From an uncultured bacterium (lineage in GTDB: Bacteria > Latescibacterota > MWCZ01 > CAZVGZ01): a stretch of 64,000 nucleotides of DNA. The stretch is from positions 8,362-72,361 of the forward strand of contig CAZVGZ010000007.1 in NCBI GenBank assembly GCA_964627605.1. The letters are read 5' to 3'. The notes beneath the pieces were generated by a model, which was not told the DNA's origin, made no database searches, and was given only the letters and a program-made list of their open reading frames with translations. Made by a program: the position numbers and the translations under genes. This document shows, piece after piece, positions 20,783 to 58,429 of this stretch; positions within the stretch are counted from its first letter, which is position 1; every line of letters starts with the position of its first letter.

Positions 20783-20911
20783 CATGATTCGCGTTCTCTA
20801 TTTTGAAGAAGGTTGCCCGCACCATGCGCCGACCTCCAAGCAGGTGCGAGCAATCGCTAACCGTGCAACGTCATCTCTCGCCGTAGAAGACATCGAAGTG
20901 ACAACGCTATA
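20783..20911 (+). pseudogene. Truncated or frameshifted small thioredoxin-family (redox-active disulfide protein 2-like) gene
   Basis: A strong Shine-Dalgarno (GAAGGAGG) precedes ATG at 20783. The product is MIRVLYFEEGCPHHAPTSKQVRAIANRATSSLAVEDIEVTTL, which resembles MKIEVLGTGCxxC...IDAEIEKV. It lacks the second Cys and stops at 43 aa. A family-like continuation (LGFLGSPTVTGKRG) is in another frame. Confidence 0.3.
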
Positions 20912-27121: not shown

Positions 27122-27588
27122 GTAGCGAGCAACGTTGATCTGACGCAGATGGGTTGCCAACCCAGATATGTTGATGGAAGGCGCACCGGTCCTCGTACCT
27201 GGCGCCGGATGTGTGAGACAGTGATCGCGCACAGCATCCTGATCGTCTGCGAGATCCCATAGGATGCGAGCGGCGAGTCCATGGACAACTCACATCCTGG
27301 CCTCAGATTCGTCCGCGATGCCGCACAGTTCATGTTGTGACTGCCCACATACCGGGCATACCAACTACGGGAGTAGATCATGCACTACCCCATCAGACTG
27401 ATGCATTCAGATCTTACCTGTCGTAAGAGATTTCCACTGATTGTCACCCAGGACGATCCTGAAGAGGTGAATATGCCCGATATCCATACACGTTCCTGTT
27501 CATCTCGTTGACGTGGCACTTTGCCGTTCAGGATATTCGAGCGAAGCCGCGACACATTCCGTCCTTCAGTTTGGAAAGAGGTGGTGTC

Positions 27589-30500: not shown

Positions 30501-31431
30501 CGTTTCATTTGCGCGAGACGCATGGATCAACGGTGAGCAAGTTGTCTCGGCGACCGTCAATGATCCGCTGGAGACGGTACCTGTGACACTGCACAAGGGG
30601 TTGAATGCGGTTCTGCTGCGGATCGTTCAGCCCAAAGGCGCTACGGTGAGTTTTCACGCGGCGTTCGTAGATCCGGATGCCGTTCCGGAATTCGATCCGT
30701 ATGTACCTTTGCTGAGATGGTTTCGCGAACCGCCAGTCCTGGCGCAGGAGGTCACCCCCGACGAGCAACGCGTAGGCTGGTTCCGATTCACTGCTCCTCC
30801 GGGACTCACGTCGATGCGAACGAAGATGTTCGCGGAACATATTCAGGCGTGGATTGGTGGGAACCAGGTCCTCGATCAGGCCGTCGAATGCTCGCCGGAA
30901 CAGAAAGAGTCCACCGAGATCGAGGTCTCGCTTGAATCTCCCATCAACCGGTGTTCACAGATCGCATTCCGTGTCGAGATGGCACCAACCTGCTACGCGG
31001 GAGCGGTATTCGACGAATACGTGAGTTTCGCCTGCGAAACTGCCCAGATTGAGATCGGCGACTGGTGTAGACAGGGTCTGGAATGCTATTCGGGCGGCGC
31101 GATCTACTCTACGTCAGTGACACTGGATACGATCGACTCCGACATGCGAATCACCCTCGATCTCGGGAATGTCGGAATCGTCGCCGAGGTATTCATCAAC
31201 GGCGAATCGGCGGGTGTACGCATGGCGAGGCCATACCGGTTCGACGTCACCTATCTCATGAAAGCGGGCGCAAACACACTTGAAGTAAAGGTCGTCAACA
31301 CCCTCGCCAACCACATGACGAGTTATCCGACCGAACGAATTCACACCGGGCAGACCGTATCCGGTTTGCTGGGTCCGGTGGAGATCAGGTTTTCACGTCT
31401 GGTGAGGGCGTCCGTGGATCCGGCGACCTAG
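27589..31431 (+). CDS. Large (1280 aa) cytoplasmic multidomain glycoside-hydrolase-like protein with C-terminal GH2-type sugar-binding beta-sandwich (possibly GH106-like)
   Basis: Start is ATG at 27589 with a GGAAAGAGGTGG Shine-Dalgarno. There is no signal peptide. The C-terminal NGESAGV...DVTYLMKAGANTLEVKVVN...GLLGPVEI matches the GH2 N-terminal/sugar-binding jelly-roll signature. Several beta-sandwich and TIM-like regions are present. The exact family is not determinable by eye. Confidence 0.65.
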   Translation: MSNQTGRYANDTGRSSTCDLRCEFKDPDRKYGPVDCWWWEAAHLSKEKLQLQLEDMAAKGISGTWYYPRYVREEPLRPDPEYWSDGWWDLTKFSTEQHDACGLVSWISDWTAHQCFQDRLRAERSERPELRGRRLVLYEGHIQMPQPIHMEIPAEEQVLHASAYEMNDAGLDYSSRIDLVEHIDGNHLTWDSLGSNWKIVVVVAQPHDLDYLNPVVANSWMDLLMGEYERRMPDQMGTIVQAYGPDEMTMLQGNTLFSPELLERFHTEKGYDPLPFLSGMFHDIGSFTDKIRCDYFDVMVSLLDENFYKPIADWVHNRGMLYTTIATWGREDPTGQTYHYGDFFKMMRHFNVTGNEDPEAKEMKRRAFIDAKFSSSIAHIYGGERVAVCGYWGSGWGVTQEENLLWTYANYAYGINFYNRHGGVYTLLGGWYEWVPPSVHFYQPYWQYWRHFTDHVRRMSHIMSQGTHVADVAILYPLTTMHAGWTGGQNFADTAQETSLRTVDLARSIYYNGIDFEFVDDNSLVQAECGDGILRIANIDLQAIVLPSLATIRRDTLEMLHRFVESGGVVVAFGRLPDASPEAGREDPVVRATILEMFRVEASVAPSDIAQNENPSGGRAIFVPGDPEDVATQIMNAVDRDLVASQSDVFHTHQRTGNLDIYLIVNVKPESRRISVNLRTTGYPEIWNTFTGEIESVYRFEHRGDRTVVELDMDIYEGVVLVVDPDRDSTRIITDDLDAIKRITCENQIAEVDGVCETGGTKTIHLLYDGTEYNAEIDVENPPDPILLDSTWDVRLEPTMDNTWGDFRYPPAKTMIGPEARTFQYREETDKPGAELGWHEPRFDDADWERVTCGYGPYWWTLGPFGVDHEPKQVLDDTIRDNFDPNLSMNAAGRPIAWQPLVFSLKHGAEFPERSWGGLEGVRDEFLTCPEVAGENDAVRYLFTCINVSEKTDWHFDLGRLLVEYHQVVGAVSFARDAWINGEQVVSATVNDPLETVPVTLHKGLNAVLLRIVQPKGATVSFHAAFVDPDAVPEFDPYVPLLRWFREPPVLAQEVTPDEQRVGWFRFTAPPGLTSMRTKMFAEHIQAWIGGNQVLDQAVECSPEQKESTEIEVSLESPINRCSQIAFRVEMAPTCYAGAVFDEYVSFACETAQIEIGDWCRQGLECYSGGAIYSTSVTLDTIDSDMRITLDLGNVGIVAEVFINGESAGVRMARPYRFDVTYLMKAGANTLEVKVVNTLANHMTSYPTERIHTGQTVSGLLGPVEIRFSRLVRASVDPAT

Positions 31432-32130: not shown

Positions 32131-32614
32131 GTTCCTTGGAAACTTCATTGCCGAGGACATTGACGGCCTTCCCAATCGGACCGGCCCCAACTTGGTGGAC
32201 TTCTTCTATATTTTTTTGGCTTCAACGATATTTACTCGCGGGGAGGTGGACTACCGACTCGACGGATATACACCTAAGAAGGAATCCGCGAGATCAGTTG
32301 ACGCGGCATATTGGGGGATGTCATCACCAGAGCAATGGAGCCGCGCGAGTTTTCCAATTCTGAAAAAGCGTGTATTGCGCCTACCGCATACTCCGAGTTG
32401 TAGTGATTGATCTAAATACCGAGGGTATACTTGCGTAGTTTGATGGGGCGACCACATCTAGGAGCGCACTACTCCAAAATTCTTGGCTAGATGCGCCTGC
32501 CCTGACCAAACAGTCTGAAAAAAGAAAGCGCCCTAGGAAGCGACAGTTCCGCAAAAAGGTTTGCTGACAGGGCCCGAAGCCGAGAACAGAGACGCCAGAG
32601 AGGACCAGCCGCAC

Positions 32615-33985
32615 ATGCATCACCCAAACGTGGTCGTAATGCTGATGGACAACTTGGGATACGGAGACCTGGAGTGTTACGGGTCGACACAGCACCGGAC
32701 GCCAAACATCGATCGACTGGCCCTGACGGGCATGCGGCTTACCAGTTTCTACAGCACGAGCGGTGTGTGTACGCCCTCACGGGCAAGCTTGATGACAGGG
32801 TGCTATCCGCGCCGGGTGAACATGCATGTTGGCGGACACGGTAGCTGCGTGTTGATGCCTGTCGATCCCAAAGGAATTCACCCCGACGAGTTGACGCTTG
32901 CCGACCTACTGCGCAACCAAGGCTACGTAACCGCTTGCGTCGGGAAATGGCACCTTGGCGACCAACCGGAGTTTCTGCCGACCAGACACGGGTTCGACGA
33001 ATTCTTCGGATGCTCTTACAGTGAGGACATGGTGGCGACCGACCTCCATCCAGAGAGGCCACCGCTGCCGCTGATGCGTGGCGAGACCGTCATCGAAGCG
33101 CCTGCAGACCGCGACAGCTTGACGAAGCGCTACACCGAGGAGGGCGTTCAGTTCATTGAGCGGAACAAAAACCGCCCGTTCTTCCTTTATCTCTCCCACG
33201 CCATGCCAGGCAGCACCGACCGCCCGTTCTCCAGCCCTGCGTTTCAAGGCAGGTCCCCCAATGGCCCTTACGGCGATGCGGTCGAAGAACTCGACTGGTC
33301 GTGCGGGCAGATCATGGAGACGCTGACCGAGCACGGCCTCGACGAGAACACACTCGTGATATGGAGTTCGGACAACGGAGCGGTAAAATGGGATCCGCCG
33401 CAGGGAAGCAACGCGCCGCTTCGTGGTTGGGGCTACGACACGTCCGAGGGCGGTCAGCGGATGCCAAGCATCGTTCGCTGGCCGGGAGTGGTGCCCGCAC
33501 GGGCCGTGCGAGACGATGTGACAACCATGATGGACATCATGCCCACAGCCGTGCAGGTCGCAGGAGGCGAGCTGCCTACCGACAGGACCATCGACGGCCA
33601 CGACATCCGAGCCATCCTCTTGGGCGATGCCGATGCGGTGTCGCCATACGACGAGCAGGGGTTCTTCTACTATCACATGCACCAGTTGCAGGCGGTGCGT
33701 TCCGGCCAGTGGAAACTGTACTTGCCATTGGCGAACAAGATAGAGGACCTGCGTGGCGACTATGACAACGGCCGGAGCACTACCGCCGAACTATACGACG
33801 TTCGGCACGATGTGGGCGAGACGCGGAACGTAGTGGCCGAGCTCCCGGATGTGGTCGCGCTGTTGACAGCCCTCGCCGACAGCGCACGGCGCGACCTTGG
33901 CGACTGGGATCGGGAGGGCTCGGATCAGCGGCCAGCAGGCTGGGTCGATGATCCAACACCGCAAGTGCTGTCGTCGCCAAATTGA
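32615..33985 (+). CDS. Cys-type sulfatase (arylsulfatase family), no signal peptide
   Basis: Start is ATG at 32615 (MHHPNVVVMLMDNLGYGD). The formylglycine motif CTPSRASLMTG is present, along with metal ligands (DN...D) and the GKWHLG motif. The 3' end contains copy 1 of the 56-bp repeat. Confidence 0.9.
   Translation: MHHPNVVVMLMDNLGYGDLECYGSTQHRTPNIDRLALTGMRLTSFYSTSGVCTPSRASLMTGCYPRRVNMHVGGHGSCVLMPVDPKGIHPDELTLADLLRNQGYVTACVGKWHLGDQPEFLPTRHGFDEFFGCSYSEDMVATDLHPERPPLPLMRGETVIEAPADRDSLTKRYTEEGVQFIERNKNRPFFLYLSHAMPGSTDRPFSSPAFQGRSPNGPYGDAVEELDWSCGQIMETLTEHGLDENTLVIWSSDNGAVKWDPPQGSNAPLRGWGYDTSEGGQRMPSIVRWPGVVPARAVRDDVTTMMDIMPTAVQVAGGELPTDRTIDGHDIRAILLGDADAVSPYDEQGFFYYHMHQLQAVRSGQWKLYLPLANKIEDLRGDYDNGRSTTAELYDVRHDVGETRNVVAELPDVVALLTALADSARRDLGDWDREGSDQRPAGWVDDPTPQVLSSPN
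33863..33918 (+). repeat. 56-bp direct repeat copy 1 (inside sulfatase 3' end)
   Basis: TTGACAGCCCTCGCCGACAGCGCACGGCGCGACCTTGGCGACTGGGATCGGGAGGG is 54/56 identical to 36270-36325. The 9-mer TTGACAGCC occurs a third time at 33980, overlapping the sulfatase stop codon. Confidence 0.8.
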
Positions 33986-34340: not shown

Positions 34341-36260
34341 ATGAAGATGGGAAAACGCTATATCGGAGTCGTCTGCATCCTGACCGCATGGGCTGTTGCG
34401 CTGTTTCTCTGGGATAAGGGCGCTCAAACCAACCCGATCGCACTACTCACACCCGCTAGGATAGCGGAAAATCCGTTCGTGGGTATCTACCGATTTGTTG
34501 GATTGCCAACCTATCTCATCCACAGATGGATGGGCGTCGCAACATACGGTTTCCCGGTCCTGCTTCTACACATCGGATGGCGCCTGGCGCGGGGAGCGAA
34601 TTCAGTCGAGATTTGGCGGCGTGCGCTCATGGCGCTACTGCTCATATTCGACCTGAGCCTCTTGGGATCGATCTACGACAGACTGCTTGGTACCGCAGAA
34701 GATGCCAGCGGGGGTCCATTTGGTGCGCTGGCGTTAGATGCGATTGCCAAAGCCGCAGGCACTCCCATCGGTGCGATCCTGGTAATCGTCGCCAACTGGT
34801 TTGGATTGCGATGGTCAGGGATCGCTGATAGCCTGGGTATACCGAGGATTGAGGCCGAGAGGCTTGGATCGGGCCTGAGGGAGGGCTGCAGAGCCATCTG
34901 GGCTCACCTCAGCGGATTCGTAAAAGGGGTGGCGGGCTCAACCCCAACGAAGAGTCGGCGACGAGCGCCTCCCAGAAAAGAAGCGCAGCAAAAACAAGGC
35001 AGCCGCAGCAAGTTGACATCACAGGTGTCAGACGCATCATACCCCAAAGGGGAATCGACCGATACCACAGGAATGATCCACGATTCAGACTCATCGCGAA
35101 CCGTGTTTGAGACTTGTGAATTGAACAAACGGCGGCGCTCTGCTAAGTCACCACCGCCATCCTCAATCATAGATGCCGAATCGCGAGCCGATGCCTACGC
35201 AGAGGACGAGTCGCTCGCGGCGATTGCCGAGGCGATTGTTGGTAAGTTACGGGAATTCAAGGTTGACGGTGATATAGCGGGCCACGTAGTCGGTCCCCTC
35301 GTCACGCGGTACGAACTGAGATTGGCGCCAGGCGTGAAGATCAGTCAGGTGAGAAACCTGTCCGACGACCTTGCCGTCGCCCTCGGTTCTCCCTCTGTGA
35401 GGTTCGAAATCCCGATTCCCGGAAAGAACACAATCGGCATCGAGATCCCCAACACCGCACCGACGGTTGTGCCACTCCATGGCTTGATCGACGGTTGGGA
35501 GGACGAGTCGCCGTTAGCTTTCCCGCTTGGCGTGGATGTCGTCGGTGCGCCCAAATTCGGCGACCTGGGTAAAATGCCACATCTTCTTGTGGCTGGAGCG
35601 ACCAACTCTGGCAAAAGCGTGTTTCTTAACGCTCTGCTAAGCAGCCTGCTCCTTAAGAGCGGTACTCAAGACTTGCGCCTTATTCTGTCCGACGTGAAAC
35701 GCACGGAACTCACACCCTACGATGGCATACCGCACCTGCTCTGTCCGGTGTTGACAGAGCCCAAAGCTGCTGAGGAAGCCCTTGAGTGGGCGGTTCAAGA
35801 GATGGACTCTCGTTTCGAGACGGTAACCGCCACCCACAGCCGAAACATCAGCGAGTACAATGCGGGGTGCAGCGAAGTCGAACAGCGGCTACCATACCTG
35901 GTCGTGATCGTCGACGAGCTCGCCGATCTGATGATGCAGGCCGACAAAGGGCTCGAGCAAAATATCGTGCGGCTAGCTCAGAAGGCTCGCGCCGTGGGAA
36001 TCCACCTCATTCTGGCCACGCAGAGGCCATCCACCGATGTTGTCACCGGAATGATAAAAGCCAACTTCCCAAGCCGGATAGCATTCCACGTCTCCAGCAT
36101 GGTCGATTCCCGCGTCGTGTTGGATGAGAACGGAGCCGAGAAACTCGTCGGTCGCGGCGACATGTTGTATAAATCTGCTCAGGGGCATGAGCTTACTCGA
36201 TTGCACGGCGCCTTCATCAGCACAGACGAAACCATGCGGATTGTTTCTCACTGGTGTTAG
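34341..36260 (+). CDS. ftsK: DNA translocase FtsK/SpoIIIE (4-TM N-domain + linker + alpha/beta motor), lacking gamma domain
   Basis: The N-terminal membrane domain is present. Walker A is GATNSGKS. Motor motifs are VVIVDELADLMM, LILATQRPSTDVVTG and GRGDMLY. The ORF stops at ...RLHGAFISTDETMRIVSHWC*, exactly where the gamma winged-helix domain normally begins. Confidence 0.9.
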   Translation: MKMGKRYIGVVCILTAWAVALFLWDKGAQTNPIALLTPARIAENPFVGIYRFVGLPTYLIHRWMGVATYGFPVLLLHIGWRLARGANSVEIWRRALMALLLIFDLSLLGSIYDRLLGTAEDASGGPFGALALDAIAKAAGTPIGAILVIVANWFGLRWSGIADSLGIPRIEAERLGSGLREGCRAIWAHLSGFVKGVAGSTPTKSRRRAPPRKEAQQKQGSRSKLTSQVSDASYPKGESTDTTGMIHDSDSSRTVFETCELNKRRRSAKSPPPSSIIDAESRADAYAEDESLAAIAEAIVGKLREFKVDGDIAGHVVGPLVTRYELRLAPGVKISQVRNLSDDLAVALGSPSVRFEIPIPGKNTIGIEIPNTAPTVVPLHGLIDGWEDESPLAFPLGVDVVGAPKFGDLGKMPHLLVAGATNSGKSVFLNALLSSLLLKSGTQDLRLILSDVKRTELTPYDGIPHLLCPVLTEPKAAEEALEWAVQEMDSRFETVTATHSRNISEYNAGCSEVEQRLPYLVVIVDELADLMMQADKGLEQNIVRLAQKARAVGIHLILATQRPSTDVVTGMIKANFPSRIAFHVSSMVDSRVVLDENGAEKLVGRGDMLYKSAQGHELTRLHGAFISTDETMRIVSHWC

Positions 36261-36269
36261 TCGATGGAT

Positions 36270-36325
36270 TTGACAGCCCTTGCCGACAGCGCACGGCACG
36301 ACCTTGGCGACTGGGATCGGGAGGG
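36270..36325 (+). repeat. 56-bp direct repeat copy 2 (9 nt after ftsK stop, same reading frame as ftsK)
   Basis: TTGACAGCCCTTGCCGACAGCGCACGGCACGACCTTGGCGACTGGGATCGGGAGGG. The flanking sequence on both sides is unrelated to copy 1. Confidence 0.8.
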
Positions 36326-36520
36326 GATGGAGTTCAACAACTCTCTCATCGTCTGCAAAGATTCGTGTCATCAAGTTACACTACCGGACACCTGAGGCTT
36401 GCTGGAACTGTCGCACCCGAACGTTGTAGTCTCCGCAGTAAAACCGGGAGAAGACGGTGCGATGACTGGCAATGCGTGTACCCGACAGTTGTTTACCTAT
36501 CACGATTGGAACAGAAAGAG

Positions 36521-37411
36521 ATGGCACTAGTACCTGCGAAAGAGTTGTTGAGGGAAGCCCGGGCAAGCGGCTATGCCGTGGGTTACTTTGAGAGCTGGAA
36601 CTTGGAGTCATTGCAGGGCGTAATCGACGCCGCCGAGGAAACCAGGTCGCCCATAATAGTAGGTTTCAGCGGGGACTTCCTCAGCCATGCGGGGCGGGTG
36701 TCCACGGAGCGGCTATCATGGTACGCCGCGCTTGGTCGTGCTGCGGCTGAATCCGCCTCGGTGCCATGCGCACTGCTGTTTAACGAATGCGCTCAGGACG
36801 ACTGGATTATCGAGGCTATGGATTCTGGTTTCAGCCAGGTCATGCTCGATGATCCAGCAGCAACACGCGGTGACCTTGTCAGCCGCTTGAGGCGGTTGAC
36901 AGAGTACGCGGGGCCGCGTGGCGTGGCGGTAGAGGCGGAGATCGGTAATCTACCAAGCGGTGCTTCGGGCGAGATAGAAGATGTTGACTCGGGGCTGACC
37001 GACCCCGACATGGCTGCCCAGTTTGTGCGAGAAACCGGGATCGATGTGCTTGGTGTCAGTGTGGGCAACGTTCACATTCTGCTCAATGGTGATCGAAGTC
37101 TGGATTTGGACCGCCTCGCGGCAATCGCTTCAAGAGTCGATATCCCCCTCGATCTTCATGGCGGAACCGGCATCGTTGCAGACGACCTCAAGAAAGCGAT
37201 CTCTCTCGGGGTGGCGAAGGTCTGCTACGGCACGTATATAAAACAGCGATATCTTAGGGATGTGCGTGCGACGCTGACGGGCGATGAAATCAATCCCCAT
37301 CAACTCCTGGGTATGGGTGGAGACGCGGATGTGATGGTGGTCGGTCGCAGGGCGGTGCGCGACGCTGTGTTGGAGCGCATAGGGCTGCTCGGTTGCTGCG
37401 GGAGGGCGTGA
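36521..37411 (+). CDS. Class II ketose-bisphosphate aldolase family protein (FbaA/GatY/IolJ-like)
   Basis: Start is ATG at 36521. The N-terminus is MALVPAKELLREARASGYAVGYFESWNLESLQGVIDAAEETRSPIIVGFS. The metal-binding H residues and the DLHGGTG motif are typical of class II aldolases. Confidence 0.85.
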   Translation: MALVPAKELLREARASGYAVGYFESWNLESLQGVIDAAEETRSPIIVGFSGDFLSHAGRVSTERLSWYAALGRAAAESASVPCALLFNECAQDDWIIEAMDSGFSQVMLDDPAATRGDLVSRLRRLTEYAGPRGVAVEAEIGNLPSGASGEIEDVDSGLTDPDMAAQFVRETGIDVLGVSVGNVHILLNGDRSLDLDRLAAIASRVDIPLDLHGGTGIVADDLKKAISLGVAKVCYGTYIKQRYLRDVRATLTGDEINPHQLLGMGGDADVMVVGRRAVRDAVLERIGLLGCCGRA

Positions 37412-37414
37412 GTA

Positions 37415-38371
37415 GTGGCCCAAGTCGGATGCGCTGGAATACTGGTGGCAGATACATTCTGCGGACCGATGCCCGAACTCCCCCGCGAGGGCCATCTCCT
37501 GGCCATCGATGCCATTGAGCTCGGAGCAGGGGGATGTGCTGCCAACGTGGCGATCGGTCTGGTGAAACAGAGCTATACCGTTGATCTGGTGGCGTGTGTA
37601 GGCACCGACTCCTCTGCTGGGTCGCTGCTCAAATCCCTGGAGGACGACGGGGTCAGTTGCGAACGTGTAGTAGTTACCGAACTGTACCCGACAAGCAAGA
37701 CGATGGTCCTGTTGGTGGAGAGTCAGGATAGGCGGTACATACACACGTTCGGGGCTAACAGAGCGTTCACCATCGATCACATCGACCGTGACTGGGTGGC
37801 GAATCTGAAGGTATTATACCTGGGCGGGTTGCTAGCCCTTCCATCCATAGATATGGACGAGCTGGGGGACCTGCTCAAGTTTTGCGGGGAGCGGCAGGTG
37901 GTCACAGTTGTGGATGTGGTGATTCCTCATGGGACCGAGGTGTCAAGTGCGACCAAAAGCCTCCTTTCTGATGTCGATTACTTCCTTCCGAACGACGACG
38001 AAGCGGCGCAGATCACCGGCAAGTCCGATCCTTTGGAGCAGTTGAAAGATTTGGGCGTTTGGGGAGCATCTACCAACATCATCACCTTGGGAGAGAAAGG
38101 CGCCATTGCTGCCAACGAGGCCAGATGCTGGCAGGTAAGCGCATACGGTGTTGACTCGGTTGATCCTTCTGGTGCAGGGGACGCGTTCACCAGCGGGATC
38201 ATCGCCGGTATCCTACGTGGTCTCGAGATGCCCTCGATGCTTCGCTACGCCAGCGCTCTCGGCGCGAGTGTCACCACCGCTGTAGGCACCACAAGCGGCC
38301 TGCTGCCGCCTGCAGAGATCGACGCATTCGTCGAGGAACATCCTTTAACAATCGACTCCGGCACGTTGTAG
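37415..38371 (+). CDS. PfkB-family carbohydrate kinase
   Basis: GTG start 4 nt after the aldolase stop. The GG motif (LGAGGCAAN) and the anion-hole motif DPSGAGDAFTSGIIAG are present. This is the ribokinase fold. Confidence 0.85.
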   Translation: MAQVGCAGILVADTFCGPMPELPREGHLLAIDAIELGAGGCAANVAIGLVKQSYTVDLVACVGTDSSAGSLLKSLEDDGVSCERVVVTELYPTSKTMVLLVESQDRRYIHTFGANRAFTIDHIDRDWVANLKVLYLGGLLALPSIDMDELGDLLKFCGERQVVTVVDVVIPHGTEVSSATKSLLSDVDYFLPNDDEAAQITGKSDPLEQLKDLGVWGASTNIITLGEKGAIAANEARCWQVSAYGVDSVDPSGAGDAFTSGIIAGILRGLEMPSMLRYASALGASVTTAVGTTSGLLPPAEIDAFVEEHPLTIDSGTL

Positions 38372-38407
38372 CGGTGCGCCAAAACCTCCCGTGAAAGGGT
38401 AAAATAG

Positions 38408-38656
38408 GTGATGAAGAAGATTGAGATGAAAATGCCCTACCTGGCAACAACAACTGACACTGTCACCGTGTTGAGTTGGCTGGTAGAGGTTGATGGGCCG
38501 ATCAAACGCGGTGAGCCGCTGTTGGAGATTGAGACCGACAAATCAATCATGGAGGTCGAATCTTACACCACGGGCACGTTGTGTGAAATACATGTGCAAC
38601 CAGGTGATGAAGTCGTAGTAGGGGAGCTGATAGCCACCATCGAGGTTGAGGGATAG
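38408..38656 (+). CDS. Stand-alone lipoyl-domain (lipoyl carrier) protein, about 80 aa
   Basis: PYLATTTDTVTVLSWLVEVDGPIKRGEPLLEIETDKSIMEVESYTTGTLCEIHVQPGDEVVVGELIATIE is a canonical lipoyl domain with the lipoyl-lysine in ETDKS. There is no catalytic E2 domain. Its stop lies 2 nt before the E1 alpha start. An alternative start is at 38426. Confidence 0.8.
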   Translation: MMKKIEMKMPYLATTTDTVTVLSWLVEVDGPIKRGEPLLEIETDKSIMEVESYTTGTLCEIHVQPGDEVVVGELIATIEVEG

Positions 38657-38658
38657 TC

Positions 38659-39675
38659 TTGATAAAAGGAGACAGCGTGATCGAGCAGACTACGGAGATA
38701 TCGGTCGAATCGGCCTCAGGCTACAGCGAAGAGTTCCTCAATGATCTCTACGCACGCATGGTTTTTGTCCGGGAATTTGAGGAAGGCGTCAAATTCCTGT
38801 TCCTGGAAGGCACCATGCCAGGCACCATCCACCAGTGTCAAGGACAGGAAGGTACCGCTGTAGGAGTCTGCACTGCACTGGAGAACGATGACTACATCAC
38901 ATCCACTTTCCGTGGTCACGGCCATGCGCTTGCCAAAGGTCTGACGCCTGAAGAGCTACTTTTCGAACTGTCCGGTGCCGGTACTGGTTGCTGCAAAGGC
39001 AAAGGCGGCTCGATGCATGTGGGGAATTTCGACAAAGGTATGATCCCCGGTATAGCGATCGTTGGCGGTGGAATCCCTTTGGCCGCAGGGATGGCTCTGG
39101 CTTTCAAGATGAAGCAGACGTCGCAACTGGTCGCATGCTTCTTCGGCGATGGGGCCACATCAGAAGGGGCGTTTCACGAAGGAATCAACCTGGCTGCGAT
39201 CTGGGACCTGTCTGTGATCTATGTCTGCGAAAACAACCTCTATGGTGCCTCCACCAGTTTCAATAAAGTCACGCGGGTGGAACGGATATCGGAGCGAGCA
39301 TCGGCGTTTGGCATCCGTGGCGAAACAGTCGATGGGAACAACGTTCTTAAGGTCTACGAAGCCACAAAGCAAGCTGCAGAGGAGTGTCGCGCAGGAGAGG
39401 GTCCCGTGCTTTTGGAGCTGCTGACATATCGCCGAACGGGCCATTCCCGGCGCGATCCCGGCCACTACCAGGCAAAGGATGAGAAGGAGTACTGGTTCGC
39501 GCGCGATCCCATCGAACGTTTAGGACGCCTCTTGGTCGCTCGCGGAGATGCGAATGAAGACTCTCTGGAGGCTGTACGCTCTGAGGCCGAGCGGCGATTT
39601 GACCAGGCGGTAGAGGCAGCGCGTCAAGAGCCGGAACCTGAGGTCGCAGATCTGTTGACGGACGTATATGCGTAG
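38659..39675 (+). CDS. TPP-dependent 2-oxoacid/acetoin dehydrogenase E1 component alpha subunit
   Basis: Motifs GQEGTAVG, GKGGSMH, GDGATSEGAFHEGINLAAIWDLSVIYVCENNLYGAS (TPP-binding) and RTGHS are present. Confidence 0.9.
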   Translation: MIKGDSVIEQTTEISVESASGYSEEFLNDLYARMVFVREFEEGVKFLFLEGTMPGTIHQCQGQEGTAVGVCTALENDDYITSTFRGHGHALAKGLTPEELLFELSGAGTGCCKGKGGSMHVGNFDKGMIPGIAIVGGGIPLAAGMALAFKMKQTSQLVACFFGDGATSEGAFHEGINLAAIWDLSVIYVCENNLYGASTSFNKVTRVERISERASAFGIRGETVDGNNVLKVYEATKQAAEECRAGEGPVLLELLTYRRTGHSRRDPGHYQAKDEKEYWFARDPIERLGRLLVARGDANEDSLEAVRSEAERRFDQAVEAARQEPEPEVADLLTDVYA

Positions 39676-39714
39676 TCATCTCCAGACCCGCTCACCACGA
39701 TTGAAGGGTAGCTA

Positions 39715-40731
39715 ATGAAGCGAATGAGCATAGCAGAGGCGCTGCGCGAGGCGATGGCCGAAGAGATGGAACGCGACGAGACCGTGTTCTGTATTGGTGA
39801 GGATATAGCCATACCAGGGGGTTTTGGTGGAGCATTTACCGCCACACTCCATCTTGAAAAGAAATTCCCCGATCGCATGTTGAATACACCGATTGCGGAG
39901 CTTGGGTTCTTCGGCGCGGCTGTAGGGGCTGCCATGATGGGGATGCGTCCCATCGCCGATGTGCAGTATGGCGATTTCCTACTGCTACCTATGGACCAGA
40001 TCATAAACAACGCTGCCAAAATGCGCTACATGTCAGGCGGTACGGTAAGTGTACCCATGGTCATACGGGCTCCGGTAGGAGCGACGGGCCGCGGATCGCA
40101 GCATGCCCAGAATCTGGAAAGATATTTCATCGGCGTGCCCGGCCTCAAGGTTGTGGCGGTCTCCAACGCCTACGATGCCAAGGGGATACTCAAGGCCGCC
40201 GTTCGCGATGACAACCCGGTGATGATGTTCGAACACAAGCTGCTATACGGCTCGAAAGGAACCCGCGCCGAGACCGGAACCACCGACGGTAGCAGGGAAA
40301 TCCCGGAAGAAGACTACGTCGTGCCGTTGGACCGTGCGGCGGTAGGACGCGAGGGGTCGCAAGCGACTATCCTGTCCTGGCTGCTGATGCACCACTTTTC
40401 GATGGCGGCTGCTGATACTCTCGCCGCCGAAGGCATCGATGTGGAGGTGGTCGATGTGCGTTCGCTATCCCCTTTCGACTACGACACAATCTGCAAATCG
40501 GTACGCAAGACCGGAAGAGTGGTTATCGTGGAGGAAGGCCCCAAGACCGGCGGCGTCTCCGCAGAACTCGCCACAGGAATCATGGAGCACTGTGGAAAAG
40601 AATTACAAGAACCGATAGTCCGTGTAGCTTCCCCGGACGTTCCGGTGCCATTCGCGCCGGTTCTGGAGAACGCCTATCGCCCAGATACGCAAAGGATAGT
40701 AGAGGCGGTACGTCGGATGCTGCAGGATTGA
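39715..40731 (+). CDS. TPP-dependent dehydrogenase E1 component beta subunit
   Basis: Transketolase-like Pyr domain (CIGEDIAIPGGFGGAFTATLHLEKKFPDRMLNTPIAELGFFGAAVGAAMMGMRPI) plus a C-terminal domain. Confidence 0.9.
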   Translation: MKRMSIAEALREAMAEEMERDETVFCIGEDIAIPGGFGGAFTATLHLEKKFPDRMLNTPIAELGFFGAAVGAAMMGMRPIADVQYGDFLLLPMDQIINNAAKMRYMSGGTVSVPMVIRAPVGATGRGSQHAQNLERYFIGVPGLKVVAVSNAYDAKGILKAAVRDDNPVMMFEHKLLYGSKGTRAETGTTDGSREIPEEDYVVPLDRAAVGREGSQATILSWLLMHHFSMAAADTLAAEGIDVEVVDVRSLSPFDYDTICKSVRKTGRVVIVEEGPKTGGVSAELATGIMEHCGKELQEPIVRVASPDVPVPFAPVLENAYRPDTQRIVEAVRRMLQD

Positions 40732-40767
40732 TTTCGCAACCATGGTCACCGACCAGGAGCTGACACT

Positions 40768-41313
40768 ATGCTGACCAAGGCGCAAGTGAAAGCGTACCAG
40801 AACCAGGCCGCCGATATGTTCCTCAAAGCCGGAATCTATATCACGGACCAGGAGAGGGAACAGGTCGAGATCGCAGATTTCGACCTGGATCAGTTCGAGC
40901 AGACAGGGTTGGGGGTGCTGGTATACGTGAATACCGAACGATGCTGCGCCAAGGAGCTGGCGATGTGGCCACGCCAGACATGCCCTGAGCACCATCACCC
41001 CTCCAGCGGCGACAGACCGGGCAAAGAAGAGACATTCCGCTGCCGTTGGGGGACGGTGTACCTCTATGAATCCGGCGAGCCAACTACCGAACCAATATCA
41101 AAGCCGCCTGTCGGCCGAGAACATACCTACGATGTCTGGCACGAGATTGTGTTGAAGCCAGGCGACCAATACACACTTAGTCCTGCTACCTGGCACTGGT
41201 TTCAGTCTGGAGATGAAGGGGCGGTAGTCTCAGAGTTCTCCTCAACGAGCACTGACGATACCGATATCTTCACCGACAAAGAGATTCAGCGAGACACACA
41301 GATCGTAGATTGA
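40768..41313 (+). CDS. D-lyxose/D-mannose ketol-isomerase-like cupin (Lyx_isomer family)
   Basis: ERCCAKELAMWPRQTCPEHHHPSSGDRPGKEETFRCRWGTVYLY matches the AKEL...CPEHHH...KEETF cupin metal site of D-lyxose isomerases. Confidence 0.65.
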   Translation: MLTKAQVKAYQNQAADMFLKAGIYITDQEREQVEIADFDLDQFEQTGLGVLVYVNTERCCAKELAMWPRQTCPEHHHPSSGDRPGKEETFRCRWGTVYLYESGEPTTEPISKPPVGREHTYDVWHEIVLKPGDQYTLSPATWHWFQSGDEGAVVSEFSSTSTDDTDIFTDKEIQRDTQIVD

Positions 41314-41466: not shown

Positions 41467-44412
41467 TTATATAGACAGTAGATAGACCTTTGTGATGACG
41501 TGCATTGATGTTTCAGCGGCAGCGGTGATATTGATCTCATAAACCCGCTCAGTTGTAGATGGACCGATCTCAATGCGCCACACCTGCCATCCACAGGGGT
41601 AAGTCTTGTGCCCCATCGCCTCGACGAACTCCGTGTTTCTTCCGTCATGCGTAATCTCAGCCTTGAAATACCGACCAGGGCCGTTCCTTTTAACAGGGCG
41701 TTCGTCATCGAGTACCTGCGCGACGATCGCCAACACTCCGTCGGCTGAGCAGGCCGGAACCGTGACAGTGCCACTGACCGTCGCTTTTGGTATAGACTCG
41801 GCTTTGGCACCGTCCCCATCAGAGTCTTCTATTGCCAGGTGCATGTGCGGACTGTCGAAAGACGTTTCGACATCCATCACGAGTGTACGACTCGGTTCGT
41901 CGAAGCCCTTTTCGATCTGTTGGTCAGGCAGCGAGATATTGGGAGCCGGTTTCGGCCCCGATGGCACCACCTCCAGCAGCATCACTTCGAACGGCCTAAG
42001 TGCATACGAGATCGCGCCAGAAAACGAGCTCCCCTCGCCGTTGACGAGTCGTGCAGGGGACGGGTACCGCCGATAAAGGTTCCATTCTTTTCCGTCGGGA
42101 AGGCCTATCTCGGCACCTAGTTTGAGCCGAACGGTAACATCATCCCAAGTGGGGTTATTCAGCGCCACGAACGCACGCTCGCCTGACGCGCAGGAATAAC
42201 CGTACGGCTCGTTGTTTAGTGGATCGCCGACCACTAGGCGTGAAGTGCGAAAGCACTCGGGATATGCGCGCAGAATAGCGATGAGCTCTGCGATCTCATG
42301 ACGTTCCAGGGGAGTTAGCCAGTCGTGATCGCTCCAGGGCTGCGCCAACATGCTGCCCCGGCAGATGTCCATCACGAATGCATTCTGCCACCGCTCTTTC
42401 CCGATGCTGCTATTCCACCACCAGTTTGAGAGCCATACGCCGAGAGAATCCTTCCCCAACGCCGGAACATCTCGGCAGTAACGCTGCATCTGGTCTAGAC
42501 CGAGCGTCACACCGTCCCGAGCGTAGAGCGTCGGGACTGCGGCAGGTGAGGCTGCTTCGACTGCGAGGCCCGGCTCAAATAGCGTGTCTGCATGGAGAAG
42601 CCACCATGGCGAGCGGTACCCCCAATAGAGCATCAGGAACACTTCGGGACTCTCATCGTCCATGGCATTCAGAAAAGAGATGACCGCTTCGTGTATAGCC
42701 TCTGTCGAGTAGATGCCTGGCAAATGGTCGTGTTCGACGTTCGAACAGTAGGAGCGAAGGTTGTCGAATTTGAGCAGCCGAACGCCGTTCTCACGGATGT
42801 GGTGGCGAAATGCGTTTCGATATACGCTTTTTGTCGGATCTGTCGCTCGACAGAGAAACGCCCCGGCCCCAGCGTGTGGTTCATACGACCGGTTGGTGGT
42901 CCGCGTCGGTGCGACGGCTGGGTTAGCTCCGATGGACCAACTGCCTCTCGAGCTAGCAATCCAGAGCCCCGGTGAGCTGCCGAGCGACTGGATCGCTTCC
43001 CGAACACGGTCGAAACCATCGGGGAACCTGTCCGGCGCGAAGCGTGTGAGATCACCGCGCGGGTCCACCCAGAAATCCGTGGTGTAGACGTCAAACCGGC
43101 AGTCCGTCTCTTCTTGTGACTTAGCGACCTTCTCCAAGCTGTCCAATACGATCTCTTCGCTGTTCAGCACCCAACGATCACTATCTTCCTCTATCGACCA
43201 CGAGCCGAATGCCGTGAATATCGCGTATGGGTGGTCGTGTTTGCGCACAGTTCTTCGCATGCGTCCTTCGACATGCCTCAAAAACTGTTCTCGGGTTTGA
43301 TTGCCGTCGCTCACTCCATACACGATTTCGCCTGCATCCCAGGCCTGCCCTGGCGACAGCGCTATTCCGATATTCCAGCCCGATGGGTGAGCGATACAGA
43401 CGAACCGGTCGTCACCGATGTGGACTGGGAAACCGCGCTCGCCGTCAGATACGCTGGTTTGCGTTTCGTATTCACCGAGCCCAGCATGCATCAGACGAAT
43501 TGGCGCTTCGCCGGAGTTCATAAATGATGTTTCTTTGCGCAGTACCGGTTCCATCGACGAAGCACGATACACTACTCGCGCCGAGAGGGATTGGTCGTCG
43601 GTGGACAGCGAGAACGAAACCGTCACCTCGCCTGGAGAGTCGTCGTCAATATCGACAGCCTCCACGCGAAGACGCGGTGCCTTCAACCCGGTACCGGCGA
43701 CGACGTACTGCTCGAACGGTGACGCGAGGATGCTGCACGCTGGCATGTGCCAGTTCTGAAGAGGGTCGATGTCATCAAGCTCTTTGGGGCGAAGAAACTG
43801 ATCCTGGAGCTGCACGGTGATGGTGTTGATCTGCCCGAACCGAACGTGCGATCGGAACTGAGAGTCGGAACCTATATCGAACACGCCGGGGCTGGTCCAG
43901 CGGCCAGACGTACGCCTGACGCCTGCTACCTCGCCGTTGACGAAAACCCGCATGTAGCGATAGTCGCCGAGACCGTAGCCCCCAAGCATCAAGCTTAGTG
44001 GTTCCCCAAAGGCGGAGTCAGGAAGGAACAGATTTGTTCTCGCCCATATATGACGTCCTCCGGTATCAGCTCCCTCATCGATCAATGTATCACTAACTTT
44101 CCACGTCGAATCGTCAAACTCAGCGGCATGGAATCCTGCGACGTAGCCAAAATCCTCGTCTGGATCGGACACCGACTTCTCCGACTGTTTAATCGCCCAA
44201 CCCTCTATCCAGTACCGAGCTTTGGCCGCGTCCAACTCGGCTTCGCACTCGATCCCATCGCCCAGGGAGATGGTCCGACCAGTGAGTCGGTTCTCCCACT
44301 CAACACCACACAGGCCGTCGCTTGTGTCGAGCTGCAACCGGTAGACCGGAGTTTCGATGTCGATTCTGGCGCCATTGACCCCTACGCTCGCGCCGACAGT
44401 TTCGTCGCCCAT
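41467..44412 (-). CDS. Large cytoplasmic GH36/clan GH-D-like glycoside hydrolase (alpha-galactosidase superfamily)
   Basis: Start is ATG at 44412 with an AAGGAGGT Shine-Dalgarno. The central TIM barrel FDVYTTDFWVDPRGDLTRFAPDRFPDGFDRVREAIQSLGSSPGLWI...VRLLKFDN resembles the GH36/GH27 catalytic core. N- and C-terminal beta-sandwich domains are present. No signal peptide. Confidence 0.65.
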   Translation of the reverse strand: MGDETVGASVGVNGARIDIETPVYRLQLDTSDGLCGVEWENRLTGRTISLGDGIECEAELDAAKARYWIEGWAIKQSEKSVSDPDEDFGYVAGFHAAEFDDSTWKVSDTLIDEGADTGGRHIWARTNLFLPDSAFGEPLSLMLGGYGLGDYRYMRVFVNGEVAGVRRTSGRWTSPGVFDIGSDSQFRSHVRFGQINTITVQLQDQFLRPKELDDIDPLQNWHMPACSILASPFEQYVVAGTGLKAPRLRVEAVDIDDDSPGEVTVSFSLSTDDQSLSARVVYRASSMEPVLRKETSFMNSGEAPIRLMHAGLGEYETQTSVSDGERGFPVHIGDDRFVCIAHPSGWNIGIALSPGQAWDAGEIVYGVSDGNQTREQFLRHVEGRMRRTVRKHDHPYAIFTAFGSWSIEEDSDRWVLNSEEIVLDSLEKVAKSQEETDCRFDVYTTDFWVDPRGDLTRFAPDRFPDGFDRVREAIQSLGSSPGLWIASSRGSWSIGANPAVAPTRTTNRSYEPHAGAGAFLCRATDPTKSVYRNAFRHHIRENGVRLLKFDNLRSYCSNVEHDHLPGIYSTEAIHEAVISFLNAMDDESPEVFLMLYWGYRSPWWLLHADTLFEPGLAVEAASPAAVPTLYARDGVTLGLDQMQRYCRDVPALGKDSLGVWLSNWWWNSSIGKERWQNAFVMDICRGSMLAQPWSDHDWLTPLERHEIAELIAILRAYPECFRTSRLVVGDPLNNEPYGYSCASGERAFVALNNPTWDDVTVRLKLGAEIGLPDGKEWNLYRRYPSPARLVNGEGSSFSGAISYALRPFEVMLLEVVPSGPKPAPNISLPDQQIEKGFDEPSRTLVMDVETSFDSPHMHLAIEDSDGDGAKAESIPKATVSGTVTVPACSADGVLAIVAQVLDDERPVKRNGPGRYFKAEITHDGRNTEFVEAMGHKTYPCGWQVWRIEIGPSTTERVYEINITAAAETSMHVITKVYLLSI

Positions 44413-44429
44413 TCGGGTAACCTCCTTGC

Positions 44430-44963
44430 TTAGGTGACAGCTTGCTGCCTCTGGAGCGCCCACTCATGGCTGCCGTGCATGTCGAAGTTGTGGCCTTTGA
44501 TATTCGGTCCGTGCCAGTTGTTCCGCGCCTCATACGCTGTGCCTGGGACGCCTGTGCCCGCTATCGCGTGTCGAGTGTTGTCGAAACGGTTCGCTTCGAT
44601 CAGCGCGTCAGAGCCGTCGAGGCATACTCCGTAGCCTAGTCCCGCACGATGGCAGTGGTGGATGTAGTTGTGATGAATGTGCGTGCCTTTGGCTTCGGGT
44701 CCAGAGCCGATTGCCGCGTGGCTCCAGCCGAACAGCTCGCAGTTGTCGACTTCAAGACCAGGATGGCTGCCCATTATTCCCTGACCGATGGGGAAACTCT
44801 TATATCCCTTCCCGTTCCATGTGAGCTCAGGGTGGTTGTTGAGCACTTCGATTAGCTCATATCCATGGAACTTCTGGTCTGGCCCTTTGATCCTCAGACC
44901 CGTGATGCGGACACCTGGGCCTGTGGACCAAATCGATTCCAGCGATCTTTGTTGATTGAACAA
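44430..44963 (-). CDS. Right-handed parallel beta-helix repeat protein (177 aa; possibly truncated)
   Basis: Repetitive G-x-x-NxxxH/Cxx beta-helix turns (IHHNYIHHCHRAGLGYGVCLDGSDALIEANRFDNTRHAIAGTG). Short for this fold. It lies 18 nt after the CocE/NonD gene in another frame. Confidence 0.45.
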   Translation of the reverse strand: MFNQQRSLESIWSTGPGVRITGLRIKGPDQKFHGYELIEVLNNHPELTWNGKGYKSFPIGQGIMGSHPGLEVDNCELFGWSHAAIGSGPEAKGTHIHHNYIHHCHRAGLGYGVCLDGSDALIEANRFDNTRHAIAGTGVPGTAYEARNNWHGPNIKGHNFDMHGSHEWALQRQQAVT

Positions 44964-58407: not shown

Positions 58408-58429
58408 CCAGAGAAGATTGGGGAGATAG

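Follow-up and report, generated by a model that had tools for sequence, protein, structure and literature searches.

Organization of the six-gene operon

The 64-kb stretch of DNA analysed here (64,000 nucleotides, nt, of contig CAZVGZ010000007.1, from an uncultured bacterium of the Latescibacterota; hereafter the window) contains an operon in which three sugar enzymes are encoded together with the alpha and beta subunits of a thiamine diphosphate (ThDP)-dependent E1 enzyme and a stand-alone lipoyl carrier. The genes, all on the + strand, encode, in this order, a class II aldolase (36521-37411; 296 amino acids, aa; PF01116, 4.4e-56), a PfkB-family sugar kinase (37415-38371; 318 aa, GTG start; PF00294, 2.2e-48), the lipoyl carrier (38411-38656; 81 aa from the ATG at 38411; PF00364, 3.7e-18), E1alpha (38677-39675; 332 aa from the GTG at 38677; PF00676, 3.8e-82), E1beta (39715-40731; 338 aa; PF02779, 2.3e-41, and PF02780, 6.1e-37) and a cupin of the D-lyxose/D-mannose ketol-isomerase type (40768-41313; 181 aa; PF07385, 9.2e-9). 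The six co-oriented, nearly gapless genes described in the initial annotation, and the families to which they had been assigned, were thus all recovered, in agreement with Pfam. The successive intergenic gaps are 3, 39, 20, 39 and 36 nt. The open reading frame (ORF) of the carrier is open already from a GTG at 38408 and that of E1alpha from a TTG at 38659, with which the third gap would be 2 nt; the GTG at 38677 has an AAGGAG sequence before it, and is the start used in the public gene call. Each of the six genes is preceded by a Shine-Dalgarno-like sequence. A consensus scan identified no terminator-like site in the gaps between them, consistent with the single transcription unit initially proposed, and the six genes form one co-oriented unit. 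In the same scan, terminator-like and promoter-like sites showed no excess over shuffled sequence. The only long gap around the six genes is the 260-nt region between an upstream FtsK gene and the aldolase gene (36261-36520, + strand), presumed to be the promoter/regulatory region of the operon, in which a scan for the sigma-70 consensus gave nothing above shuffles. There is no regulator gene within the cluster. A 10.5-kb stretch is identical in two other metagenome assemblies (ERZ23491172 and ERZ27245254), and a contig of a third (ERZ23491373) is 99.9% identical. The names and contexts of the nearest homologues would make the source organism a probable planctomycete.

None of the three sugar enzymes falls within a named NCBIfam equivalog. 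By sequence, the aldolase is a metal-dependent enzyme of class II acting on ketose phosphates, from the FBA/tagatose-bisphosphate/YdjI family. Its best NCBIfam scores were for FBA (191 bits, cut-off 423) and tagatose-bisphosphate aldolase (175 bits), all the equivalog cut-offs (343-545) being missed by far, and it lies roughly equidistant from the structures of FBA, AgaY and YdjI (Protein Data Bank, PDB; FBA 2FJK, 3e-37; YdjI 6OFU, 1.1e-34). The kinase likewise reached no equivalog (ribokinase, 118 bits with a cut-off of 300; IolC, 100 bits), and its best PDB match was Escherichia coli YdjH (3H49, 3.9e-24); orthologues with 54-68% identity occupy the same position in the related loci L016, L021, L091, L096 and L097. 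The YdjH and YdjI genes of E. coli provide a parallel, as an adjacent pair encoding a PfkB kinase and a class II aldolase of the FBA family, albeit with a low level of similarity to the window proteins (~1e-24 and ~1e-34). The cupin scored 35.3 bits with PF07385 (cut-off 20.8) and matched the D-lyxose isomerase of Thermofilum (7NZO, 1e-65) and Bacillus subtilis YdaE (2Y0O, 3.6e-57), the alignments with both running from end to end, with 50-60% of the aligned residues identical (counted by eye). Its metal-binding residues (H75, H77, E88 and H143) were invariant in an alignment of 39 sequences, and the family has at least 8000 homologues. From the sequence features of this family, it may be considered a bona fide D-lyxose/D-mannose isomerase homologue. 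Unlike the window gene, those of the two characterised isomerases have not been reported in E1/lipoyl clusters, and ydaE of B. subtilis is a general-stress gene.

For E1alpha, the nearest model was TIGR03182 (PDH_E1_alph_y, a pyruvate dehydrogenase, PDH, model), with a score of 347.7 bits, below the cut-off for the PDH equivalog (393.85). E1beta passed the PDH E1beta subfamily model NF006667 (335.2 bits, cut-off 321). The label "acetoin dehydrogenase type" given in the initial annotation is not borne out by these scores. The match of E1alpha in the PDB was human PDH E1alpha (1.8e-59), and its sequence contains the GDG...NN ThDP motif and the histidine of YRxxGHS, whereas E1beta keeps the equivalents of the human residues beta-Glu59 (in PIAELGF) and beta-His128 (in SQHAQ). 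The two proteins together have the make-up of a heterotetrameric E1, with a ThDP motif in the alpha subunit and pyrimidine-binding and C-terminal domains in the beta subunit. Weak matches of E1alpha to transketolase and DXS models were also obtained. E1alpha is 46% identical to the E1alpha of a Clostridioides difficile aco-like operon and of a Rhizobium sugar-locus operon. E1beta is the most conserved of the six proteins, with 73-85% identity to planctomycete/verrucomicrobial orthologues and 56-62% identity to those of Terriglobia, Actinomycetota and Spirochaetia.

Pfam scans covering all the large ORFs of the window revealed no E2 catalytic domain and no E3 (dihydrolipoyl dehydrogenase). A tblastn search of the window with six E2 and two E3 queries (E<=10) matched only the lipoyl domain, with no catalytic-domain remnant. 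The initial statement that the window lacks an E3 was therefore confirmed by both approaches.

The lipoyl carrier and clusters without an E2 core

The predicted lipoyl lysine of the carrier is K44, in EIETDKS (codon 38540-38542). A linker, a subunit-binding motif and an acyltransferase domain are all lacking from this protein; it matched only PF00364 and PF13533 in Pfam, with no match to GCV_H (PF01597), and, in NCBIfam, only the lipoyl domains of E2, AcoC and E1beta models, including NF008854. It is therefore, as first described, a stand-alone PF00364 protein with the EIETDKS motif but without an acyltransferase, and tblastn detected no E2 remnant nearby. An identical protein is present in public data (P0121). 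The homologues retrieved by a word-indexed search were either 81-82 aa long, with 70-72% identity, or 135-144 aa long, with 65-69% identity, the longer ones keeping a linker and a GGMFARNR motif, after which they end.

The absence of an E2, initially presented as a property of the system, does not extend to many of the relatives, in which a full E2 of 340-380 aa is encoded at the position of the lipoyl gene (L016, L021, L006, L008 and L054). The E2s of the relatives match PF00198, and the window carrier does not have their combination of lipoyl domain, subunit-binding region and PF00198 core. In the planctomycete/verrucomicrobial E2s (340-380 aa), the lipoyl domain is followed by a Pro/Ala linker, a (G)GMFA[KR]NRAA motif matching, in the alignment, helix 1 of a canonical subunit-binding domain, and then the catalytic domain; these E2s have no canonical subunit-binding domain, and their clusters have no E3 gene. 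A full canonical subunit-binding domain is found in more distant E2s (L069, L077 and L079). In an alignment with full-length E2s, the window carrier ends right after the lipoyl domain, with a clean loss of the rest. As the carrier stops at this point whereas its relatives have a full E2, it is derived from an E2: the lineage of the window lost the acyltransferase domain of the E2 of the cluster and kept the lipoyl domain. The view that the lipoyl ORF is not a fragment of a disrupted E2 consequently holds in that the ORF is conserved, is under selection and has no remnant nearby, but not in the evolutionary sense, as it is a remnant of an E2.

Other truncated architectures were found. An exhaustive HMMER search yielded at least seven further clusters (50% identity) of 128-168-aa proteins with a lipoyl domain, a linker and an xFARNR tail, and two proteins in which this tail leads straight into the N-terminus of E1alpha. 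Lipoyl proteins of this length with a Pro/Ala linker and a [GS][MFL]FA[RK]NR motif are encoded at L091:10001-10435 and L097:10001-10432, and the same type is represented by P0126-P0130, P0177, P0228, P0253, P0263, P0267, P0274 and P0279. The [GS][MFL]FA[RK]NR motif, which is missing from the 81-aa form of the window, is a candidate minimal E1-docking motif. Of the 120 nearest homologues of E1alpha (67-86% identical; P0291-P0410), 62, a majority, are fusions of a lipoyl domain to E1alpha (412-480 aa); the E[TS]DK lysine motif is present in all 62 of these fusions, and the xF.RNR motif in 49. At two fusion loci (L099:10001-11425 and L100:10001-11377), the aldolase gene lies directly upstream from the lipoyl-E1alpha gene, which is followed by an inserted ORF and then by E1beta, with no E2 within 10 kb.

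The inserted ORF of these two loci (L099:11455-12327 and L100:11405-12277) encodes 290 aa, with 60% identity between the copies and a weak match to DUF4351. Our guess is that it encodes a protein of the type found in mobile elements, maybe as an unrelated insertion; it is not present in the window. A replacement acyltransferase was sought among the conserved neighbours of the E2-less loci, and none was found. In the C. difficile aco-like operon, LpdA (L094:11191-12921; 576 aa) has an N-terminal lipoyl domain of its own, 39% identical to the window carrier region.

The ratio of nonsynonymous to synonymous substitution rates (dN/dS; Nei-Gojobori) between L091 and L097, both of which have the truncated architecture, was 0.042 for E1alpha, 0.046 for E1beta and 0.17 for the carrier, and 0.089, 0.114 and 0.078 for the aldolase, kinase and cupin, respectively. 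With the comparisons involving the window included, the values ranged from 0.05 to 0.17 for the carrier and from 0.046 to 0.051 for E1beta; dS was saturated in most of the comparisons with the window, for which these ratios are rough, the L091-L097 pair being the most reliable. Thus, E1alpha, E1beta and the carrier have been under purifying selection since the loss of the acyltransferase (dN/dS 0.04-0.17). In a neighbour-joining (NJ) tree, which was rough, had no support values and is read here as a leaf order only, the fusions formed one block and the free-carrier group of the window, L091 and L097 another, and lineages with a full E2 fell in between. Such an order suggests that the catalytic domain was lost independently at least twice, and the Arthrobacter plasmid described below adds another case. 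The association of an E1 with a lipoyl domain, in the absence of an E2 core of its own, is thus a recurrent, maintained design, and the lipoyl ORF of the window is not a fresh pseudogene.

Conservation, genomic context and loss of the E1 module

The recurrence of the gene set in other genomes was assessed in 80 loci surrounding cupin homologues from species-representative genomes, scored with the window proteins. E1alpha and/or E1beta lay beside the cupin in 14 of these loci. The exact gene order of the window, but with a full E2, was found in L016 (Planctomycetota) and L021 (Thermoguttaceae), and rearranged sets of aldolase, E2, E1alpha, E1beta and cupin genes in L068 and L069 (Terriglobia), L077 (Actinomycetota) and L079 (Spirochaetia), joined by PfkB in L068, L077 and L079. 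In L047 (Gaiellaceae), the order cupin-PfkB-aldolase-E1alpha is followed by the end of the contig. The metagenome contexts L004 and L006 agree with this synteny. The order aldolase-PfkB-lipoyl-E1alpha-E1beta-cupin, with a carrier of 143-144 aa, is present on a 6.7-Mb contig (L092, of which L091 is a near-identical copy) and on a 2.1-Mb contig (L097), whereas L096 has PfkB and an 82-aa lipoyl gene followed by a different gene. The closest relative found (E1alpha 86% identical) has, on one strand, the order GH38-aldolase-PfkB-lipoyl (81 aa)-E1alpha-E1beta-cupin. The gene set thus recurs in Planctomycetota, Verrucomicrobiota, Terriglobia, Actinomycetota and Spirochaetia, and the occurrence of this synteny in so many distant genomes indicates that the adjacency of the genes is not due to chance. 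The genes for the aldolase, kinase, E1alpha/beta, lipoyl protein or E2, and cupin stay associated in different phyla, a synteny that the initial annotation had proposed to check, and are kept as one unit, unlike a split acoABC-type operon lying by chance beside sugar genes.

In the cluster types sampled, the gene accompanying E1 most consistently was that for the class II aldolase. In cultivated bacteria, E1alpha homologues with 45-51% identity, not associated with a cupin, also lie within sugar loci. A Rhizobium plasmid carries genes for a sugar kinase, a sugar ABC transporter, a SorC-type regulator, an oxidoreductase, E1alpha, E1beta, E2, LpdA and a class II aldolase. The plasmid of Arthrobacter sp. 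FW306-07-I (NZ_CP084551.1, 1-12700; L095/L098) carries those for a class II aldolase, a fused E1alpha/beta (694 aa), an 85-aa lipoyl protein, two FGGY kinases, a SorC-type regulator, a sugar ABC transporter and an SDR protein. The Arthrobacter plasmid provides an independent example, from a cultivated isolate, of an E1/lipoyl sugar cluster without an E2. In the versions from Rhizobium, Arthrobacter and planctomycetes, the aldolase and E1 genes belong to the same cluster. E3 genes were found in or near the related clusters of L079, L010, Rhizobium and C. difficile only. In some loci from verrucomicrobia, planctomycetes and Chthonomonadia (L004:1612-9933, L008, L009, L097:4448-7062 and L010:10541-11464), the E2/E1/cupin genes are interspersed with, or flanked by, two or three paralogous genes of the PhyH family (Fe/2-oxoglutarate dioxygenases), none of which is present in the window.

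The genomic surroundings provided indications as to the sugar concerned. GH38 (alpha-mannosidase) was the commonest neighbouring family, accounting for nine of the 104 neighbouring ORFs of 13 E1-containing cupin loci annotated with Pfam, followed by MFS/sugar transporters, a bifunctional aldolase/SDR and a GH63-like hydrolase. A tblastn search detected GH38 in 10 of 22 E1-containing sets, including the Terriglobia loci, and GH38 also lies a few kb downstream from the fusion-type clusters L099 and L100. In the 35 cupin loci without E1 genes, the neighbours included PfkB (10), ROK (7), Gfo/Idh/MocA (8), DeoC/LacD (5) and class II aldolase (2) genes; the kinases and aldolases among them fit a general isomerase-kinase-aldolase route. 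This comparative context points to alpha-mannosides and mannose (or lyxose) as the probable substrates, rather than rhamnose, 6-deoxy or sulfated sugars. The 6-deoxy or methyl-ketone substrate first suggested, on the grounds of the rhamnosidase-like and sulfatase genes of the window, received no comparative support, the recurrent neighbour being GH38. Two other substrates were considered and rejected. A sulfoquinovose (sulfoglycolysis) route was dropped, as neither the window nor the neighbourhoods annotated with Pfam revealed a gene of the sulfoquinovosidase type and no relevant literature was found; pyruvylated mannose was rejected on chemical grounds, as a 4,6-ketal blocks the retro-aldol step. 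A literature match combining GH38 and acetoin, concerning xanthan degradation by Paenarthrobacter, was also set aside, acetoin being merely a phenotypic test in that case.

The E1 genes have been lost from some close relatives. The sample that yielded the closest relative also contains a 236-kb contig with the order GH38-aldolase-PfkB-lipoyl (81 aa)-cupin, in which 264 nt separate the last two genes and both E1alpha and E1beta are gone. The carrier ORF of L013 (1207-1830) is fused, in frame, to the 61 C-terminal residues of E1beta, and this locus has no PfkB; in L001 (9705-9959), only a C-terminal remnant of E1beta precedes the cupin. The E1 module is thus accessory to an isomerase/kinase/aldolase core, and this pattern of gene content argues against a housekeeping PDH role. 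The locus L089, from the same organism as the window and 99.9% identical to it, differs from it by seven mismatches and one gap over 10.3 kb aligned. Its PfkB is called as two ORFs (186 and 142 aa; L089:3215-4175), where the gap probably lies, representing either a population-level frameshift or an assembly error.

Proposed catabolic role and alternative functions

A full-text literature search, with subscription journals mostly outside its coverage, yielded no description of this cluster, in agreement with the initial remark that the combination of genes is not a described pathway. The reading that we favour, and consider to have an even chance of being correct, is that the operon is catabolic and belongs to a multi-phylum gene set for mannose-configured sugars freed by GH38 enzymes, with the E1 loading a sugar-derived fragment onto the carrier. 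In such a pathway, the cupin would isomerise D-mannose (or D-lyxose) to the corresponding ketose (fructose or xylulose), which the PfkB kinase would phosphorylate, probably at C1; YdjH, its nearest solved relative, acts together with the aldolase YdjI and phosphorylates C1 of 2-ketoses. The class II aldolase would then cleave the ketose phosphate to yield dihydroxyacetone phosphate (DHAP) and a C2-C3 alpha-hydroxy-aldehyde (glyceraldehyde or glycolaldehyde). This fragment, directly or after oxidation to a 2-oxo acid (hydroxypyruvate/pyruvate), would be the substrate of the ThDP-dependent E1, which would reductively acylate the lipoyl-lysine of the free 81-aa carrier. The carrier would diffuse, in the manner of an H protein, to trans-acting enzymes encoded elsewhere in the genome, with off-loading by a housekeeping E2 core or another acyl acceptor, and re-oxidation by a dihydrolipoyl dehydrogenase. 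The first three steps resemble the known isomerase-kinase-aldolase routes (fucose, rhamnose, sulfo-EMP and liver fructose-1-phosphate), which proceed from aldose to ketose, ketose-1-phosphate and DHAP plus aldehyde. However, the aldehyde is removed in those routes by an aldehyde dehydrogenase or reductase, with no ThDP/lipoyl module.

By analogy, the most plausible mode of action of the carrier is that of the glycine cleavage H protein, which shuttles between the P, T and L proteins: a small free lipoyl protein that would be loaded by an enzyme of the decarboxylase type and served by separate enzymes without a stable core. It nevertheless belongs to another family, the E2-type PF00364, and its loading enzyme would be dependent on ThDP rather than on pyridoxal phosphate. 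Lipoyl domains outside E2 have a precedent in the alphaproteobacterial PDH E1beta, which bears one at its N-terminus (NF008854). The corynebacterial/mycobacterial OdhA has an E2 catalytic domain but no lipoyl domain, and uses the lipoyl domains of AceF in trans; the window presents the mirror image of this arrangement, with the lipoyl domain present and the catalytic domain missing.

Several points weigh against the proposed pathway. The weakest step is the identity of the E1 substrate, which we infer entirely; we know of no physiological precedent for the oxidation of an alpha-hydroxy-aldehyde by an E1, and the conserved carboxylate-binding histidine fits an ordinary 2-oxo acid (pyruvate) equally well. 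On sequence comparisons, neither the position phosphorylated by the kinase nor the substrate of the aldolase appears to be fixed by the family matches. The Thermofilum homologue of the cupin is specific for D-lyxose, which makes mannose less than certain as the substrate, and there is no GH38 gene in the window itself. Finally, E1alpha and E1beta have been deleted in sister strains in which GH38, the aldolase, kinase, carrier and cupin are kept, so the remainder of the pathway can do without the E1 step.

A broader interpretation, advanced more tentatively and with somewhat less than an even chance, is that the clusters represent an undescribed, widespread form of sugar catabolism in which a PDH/acetoin-type E1 acts on a sugar-derived alpha-hydroxy-carbonyl compound, instead of pyruvate or acetoin, to form an acyl-lipoyl thioester, often without a dedicated E2 core. 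Its hosts would be Planctomycetota, Verrucomicrobiota, Acidobacteriota and Actinomycetota, among others. The substrate would be either the aldehyde half released by the aldolase or the ketose phosphate itself, and the lipoyl domain would be either free or fused to E1. Such a system would amount to a pared-down 2-oxoacid dehydrogenase machinery of minimal, H-protein-like form.

It is also possible, although we consider it doubtful, that the E1 is that of an ordinary pyruvate (or acetoin) dehydrogenase, present in a mannose operon for co-regulation only, with no new chemistry. The PDH models are the best for both subunits, E1beta passing its cut-off (335 versus 321), the nearest solved structures are E1s of PDH/2-oxoacid dehydrogenases, with the catalytic Glu and His kept, and relatives are labelled as pyruvate/acetoin dehydrogenase alpha subunits by JGI. 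However, E1alpha remains below the PDH equivalog cut-off (347.7 versus 393.85), the genes are tightly linked across phyla to a class II aldolase and a sugar kinase and to no other glycolytic gene, and the planctomycete/verrucomicrobial clusters have no E3 and no canonical subunit-binding domain in their E2s. Furthermore, the module is accessory and has been deleted in sister strains, unlike a housekeeping PDH. As regards acetoin, the aco operon of C. difficile (acoRABCL), the E1alpha of which is 46% identical to that of the window, does not support growth on acetoin (bioRxiv 10.1101/2023.07.28.551048). The regulator of this operon was assigned to the DeoR family by the authors of that study, and its PGAP label is that of a sugar-binding transcriptional regulator.

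The comparison with the corresponding complexes leads to a similar assessment. The acetoin dehydrogenase system (AcoA/AcoB/AcoC/AcoL of B. subtilis, Cupriavidus necator and Pelobacter carbinolicus, and the predicted C. difficile acoRABCL) shares with the operon a heterotetrameric ThDP-dependent E1 of ~330 + 340 aa transferring an acyl group to a lipoyl lysine, and the full E2s of the relatives are short (340-380 aa), like that of C. difficile (348 aa). By contrast, the window has no second AcoC domain, no AcoL and no regulator, and its E1 genes lie in an isomerase/kinase/aldolase operon of a type linked to GH38. The PDH complexes with a heterotetrameric E1 (human, Geobacillus and alphaproteobacterial) provide the best profile and structure matches, and their catalytic residues are kept, but the window has no E2 core, subunit-binding domain or E3, its E1alpha lies below the equivalog cut-off and the module is deletable. 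With its E1 features present, and the E2 core and subunit-binding domain absent, the operon would not be classified as a member of either the acetoin or the PDH complexes.

Less probable still is a transketolase/phosphoketolase-like activity, in which the E1 would attack C2 of a ketose (phosphate), free a shortened aldose and transfer the C2 unit (glycolyl, or acetyl following an elimination) to the carrier, with the leftover triose/tetrose phosphates passing to the aldolase. In established ThDP chemistry, acetoin-type E1s split alpha-hydroxy-ketones, of which every 2-ketose is one. The weak matches of E1alpha to the transketolase and DXS models are consistent with such a reaction, and the lack of an E3 and of a canonical subunit-binding domain in the planctomycete/verrucomicrobial clusters would fit a redox-neutral acyl transfer. 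Nevertheless, the presence of an E3 in the Rhizobium, C. difficile, L079 and L010 clusters points towards an oxidative reaction, the E1 and the aldolase would be in competition for one substrate and a glycolyl thioester would have no obvious downstream route in the cluster. Two-subunit ThDP enzymes resembling E1alpha/beta do act on sugars without an E2 in the biosynthesis of branched sugars (alpha-KADH2; reviewed in PMC12247030). Unlike the E1 of the window, those enzymes are biosynthetic carboligases from natural-product clusters, with no link to kinase, aldolase or glycosidase genes. The alpha-KADH2 enzymes are not known to have a lipoyl partner.

We consider it very unlikely that the E1 and carrier are decaying remnants, rendered useless by the loss of the acyltransferase, with only the cupin, kinase and aldolase still working. 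The deletion scars in L013 and L001, the 236-kb sister contig without E1alpha/beta and the single gap of L089 relative to the window, with its PfkB called as two ORFs, could be taken as signs of decay. However, the low dN/dS values of E1alpha, E1beta and the carrier (0.04-0.17) extend to the comparison between two E2-less lineages, all the ORFs of the window are intact, with their catalytic motifs present, and the E2-less state is widespread, with at least two origins suggested by the NJ leaf order, and has evolved on to stable lipoyl-E1alpha fusions. The least probable of the explanations considered is that the E1 cleaves a 6-deoxy-ketose or methyl-ketone sugar from rhamnose, fucose or sulfated glycans beside the methyl ketone: GH106-like and sulfatase genes do lie 2.5-9 kb upstream, three verrucomicrobial clusters have, beside the cupin, a bifunctional aldolase/SDR related to the rhamnulose-1-phosphate aldolase/dehydrogenase fusion (below the model cut-off) and a GH95 gene lies near the cluster in L091/L092, but FtsK lies between the operon and these GH106-like and sulfatase genes, which accompany it only in the same organism, the relatives have GH38 and the cupin is 50-60% identical to isomerases acting on D-manno/lyxo configurations, not on L-rhamnose.

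All the parts of the operon belong to known families, and the unexpected features are the lipoyl architectures without an E2 and the linkage to mannosides and ketose phosphates. If the E1 and carrier do act on a sugar fragment, they would constitute a new disposal route for the non-DHAP half of the products of isomerase-kinase-aldolase pathways, and this fragment might be conserved as a thioester, instead of being oxidised or reduced as a free aldehyde. The free 81-aa carrier, the carriers with a FARNR tail and the fusions, all under selection, suggest that PDH/acetoin-type E1s could work stably without an E2 core of their own, which bears on the evolution of the large 2-oxoacid dehydrogenase complexes and on their minimal functional unit. 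The components of the cluster are small and soluble. The cluster is common in abundant, poorly cultivated glycan degraders and adjoins alpha-mannosidases; it is therefore probably of importance for the turnover of mannan and N-glycans in soils and waters.

The initial annotation placed glycoside hydrolases and a sulfatase on the flanks of the operon. Its direct upstream neighbour is instead the FtsK gene (34341-36260), beyond which lie the sulfatase (32561-33985) and GH106-like (27508-31431) genes, 2.5-9 kb upstream from the operon. This rhamnosidase-like/sulfatase neighbourhood was found only in copies of the same organism. Directly downstream, an ORF of 998 aa on the - strand (41467-44463) converges on the operon; it gave no match in Pfam and no sequence match in the PDB, and is kept in other assemblies of the same organism (981 aa), but not beside the cluster in relatives. 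The window also contains housekeeping genes, for SecA, the delta subunit of polymerase III, DnaA (at 21966), FtsK, EF-G, AccD, AspRS and HisRS, and its other genes include, in addition to the GH106-like, sulfatase and 998-aa ORFs, those encoding a GH42-like protein, an RND efflux pump and an S15 peptidase. A region of ~1.7 kb without an ORF of at least 150 aa (20236-21965) lies directly upstream from dnaA (21966-23330) and is a possible candidate for the replication origin region. Finally, at 55345-59722, a 430-aa ORF faintly matching DUF2229 comes after the gene for a BadF/BcrA-type ATPase of 1020 aa fused to DUF2229 (CoA-enzyme activase); the two, which are unrelated to the sugar operon, possibly form an activase/dehydratase-like pair.

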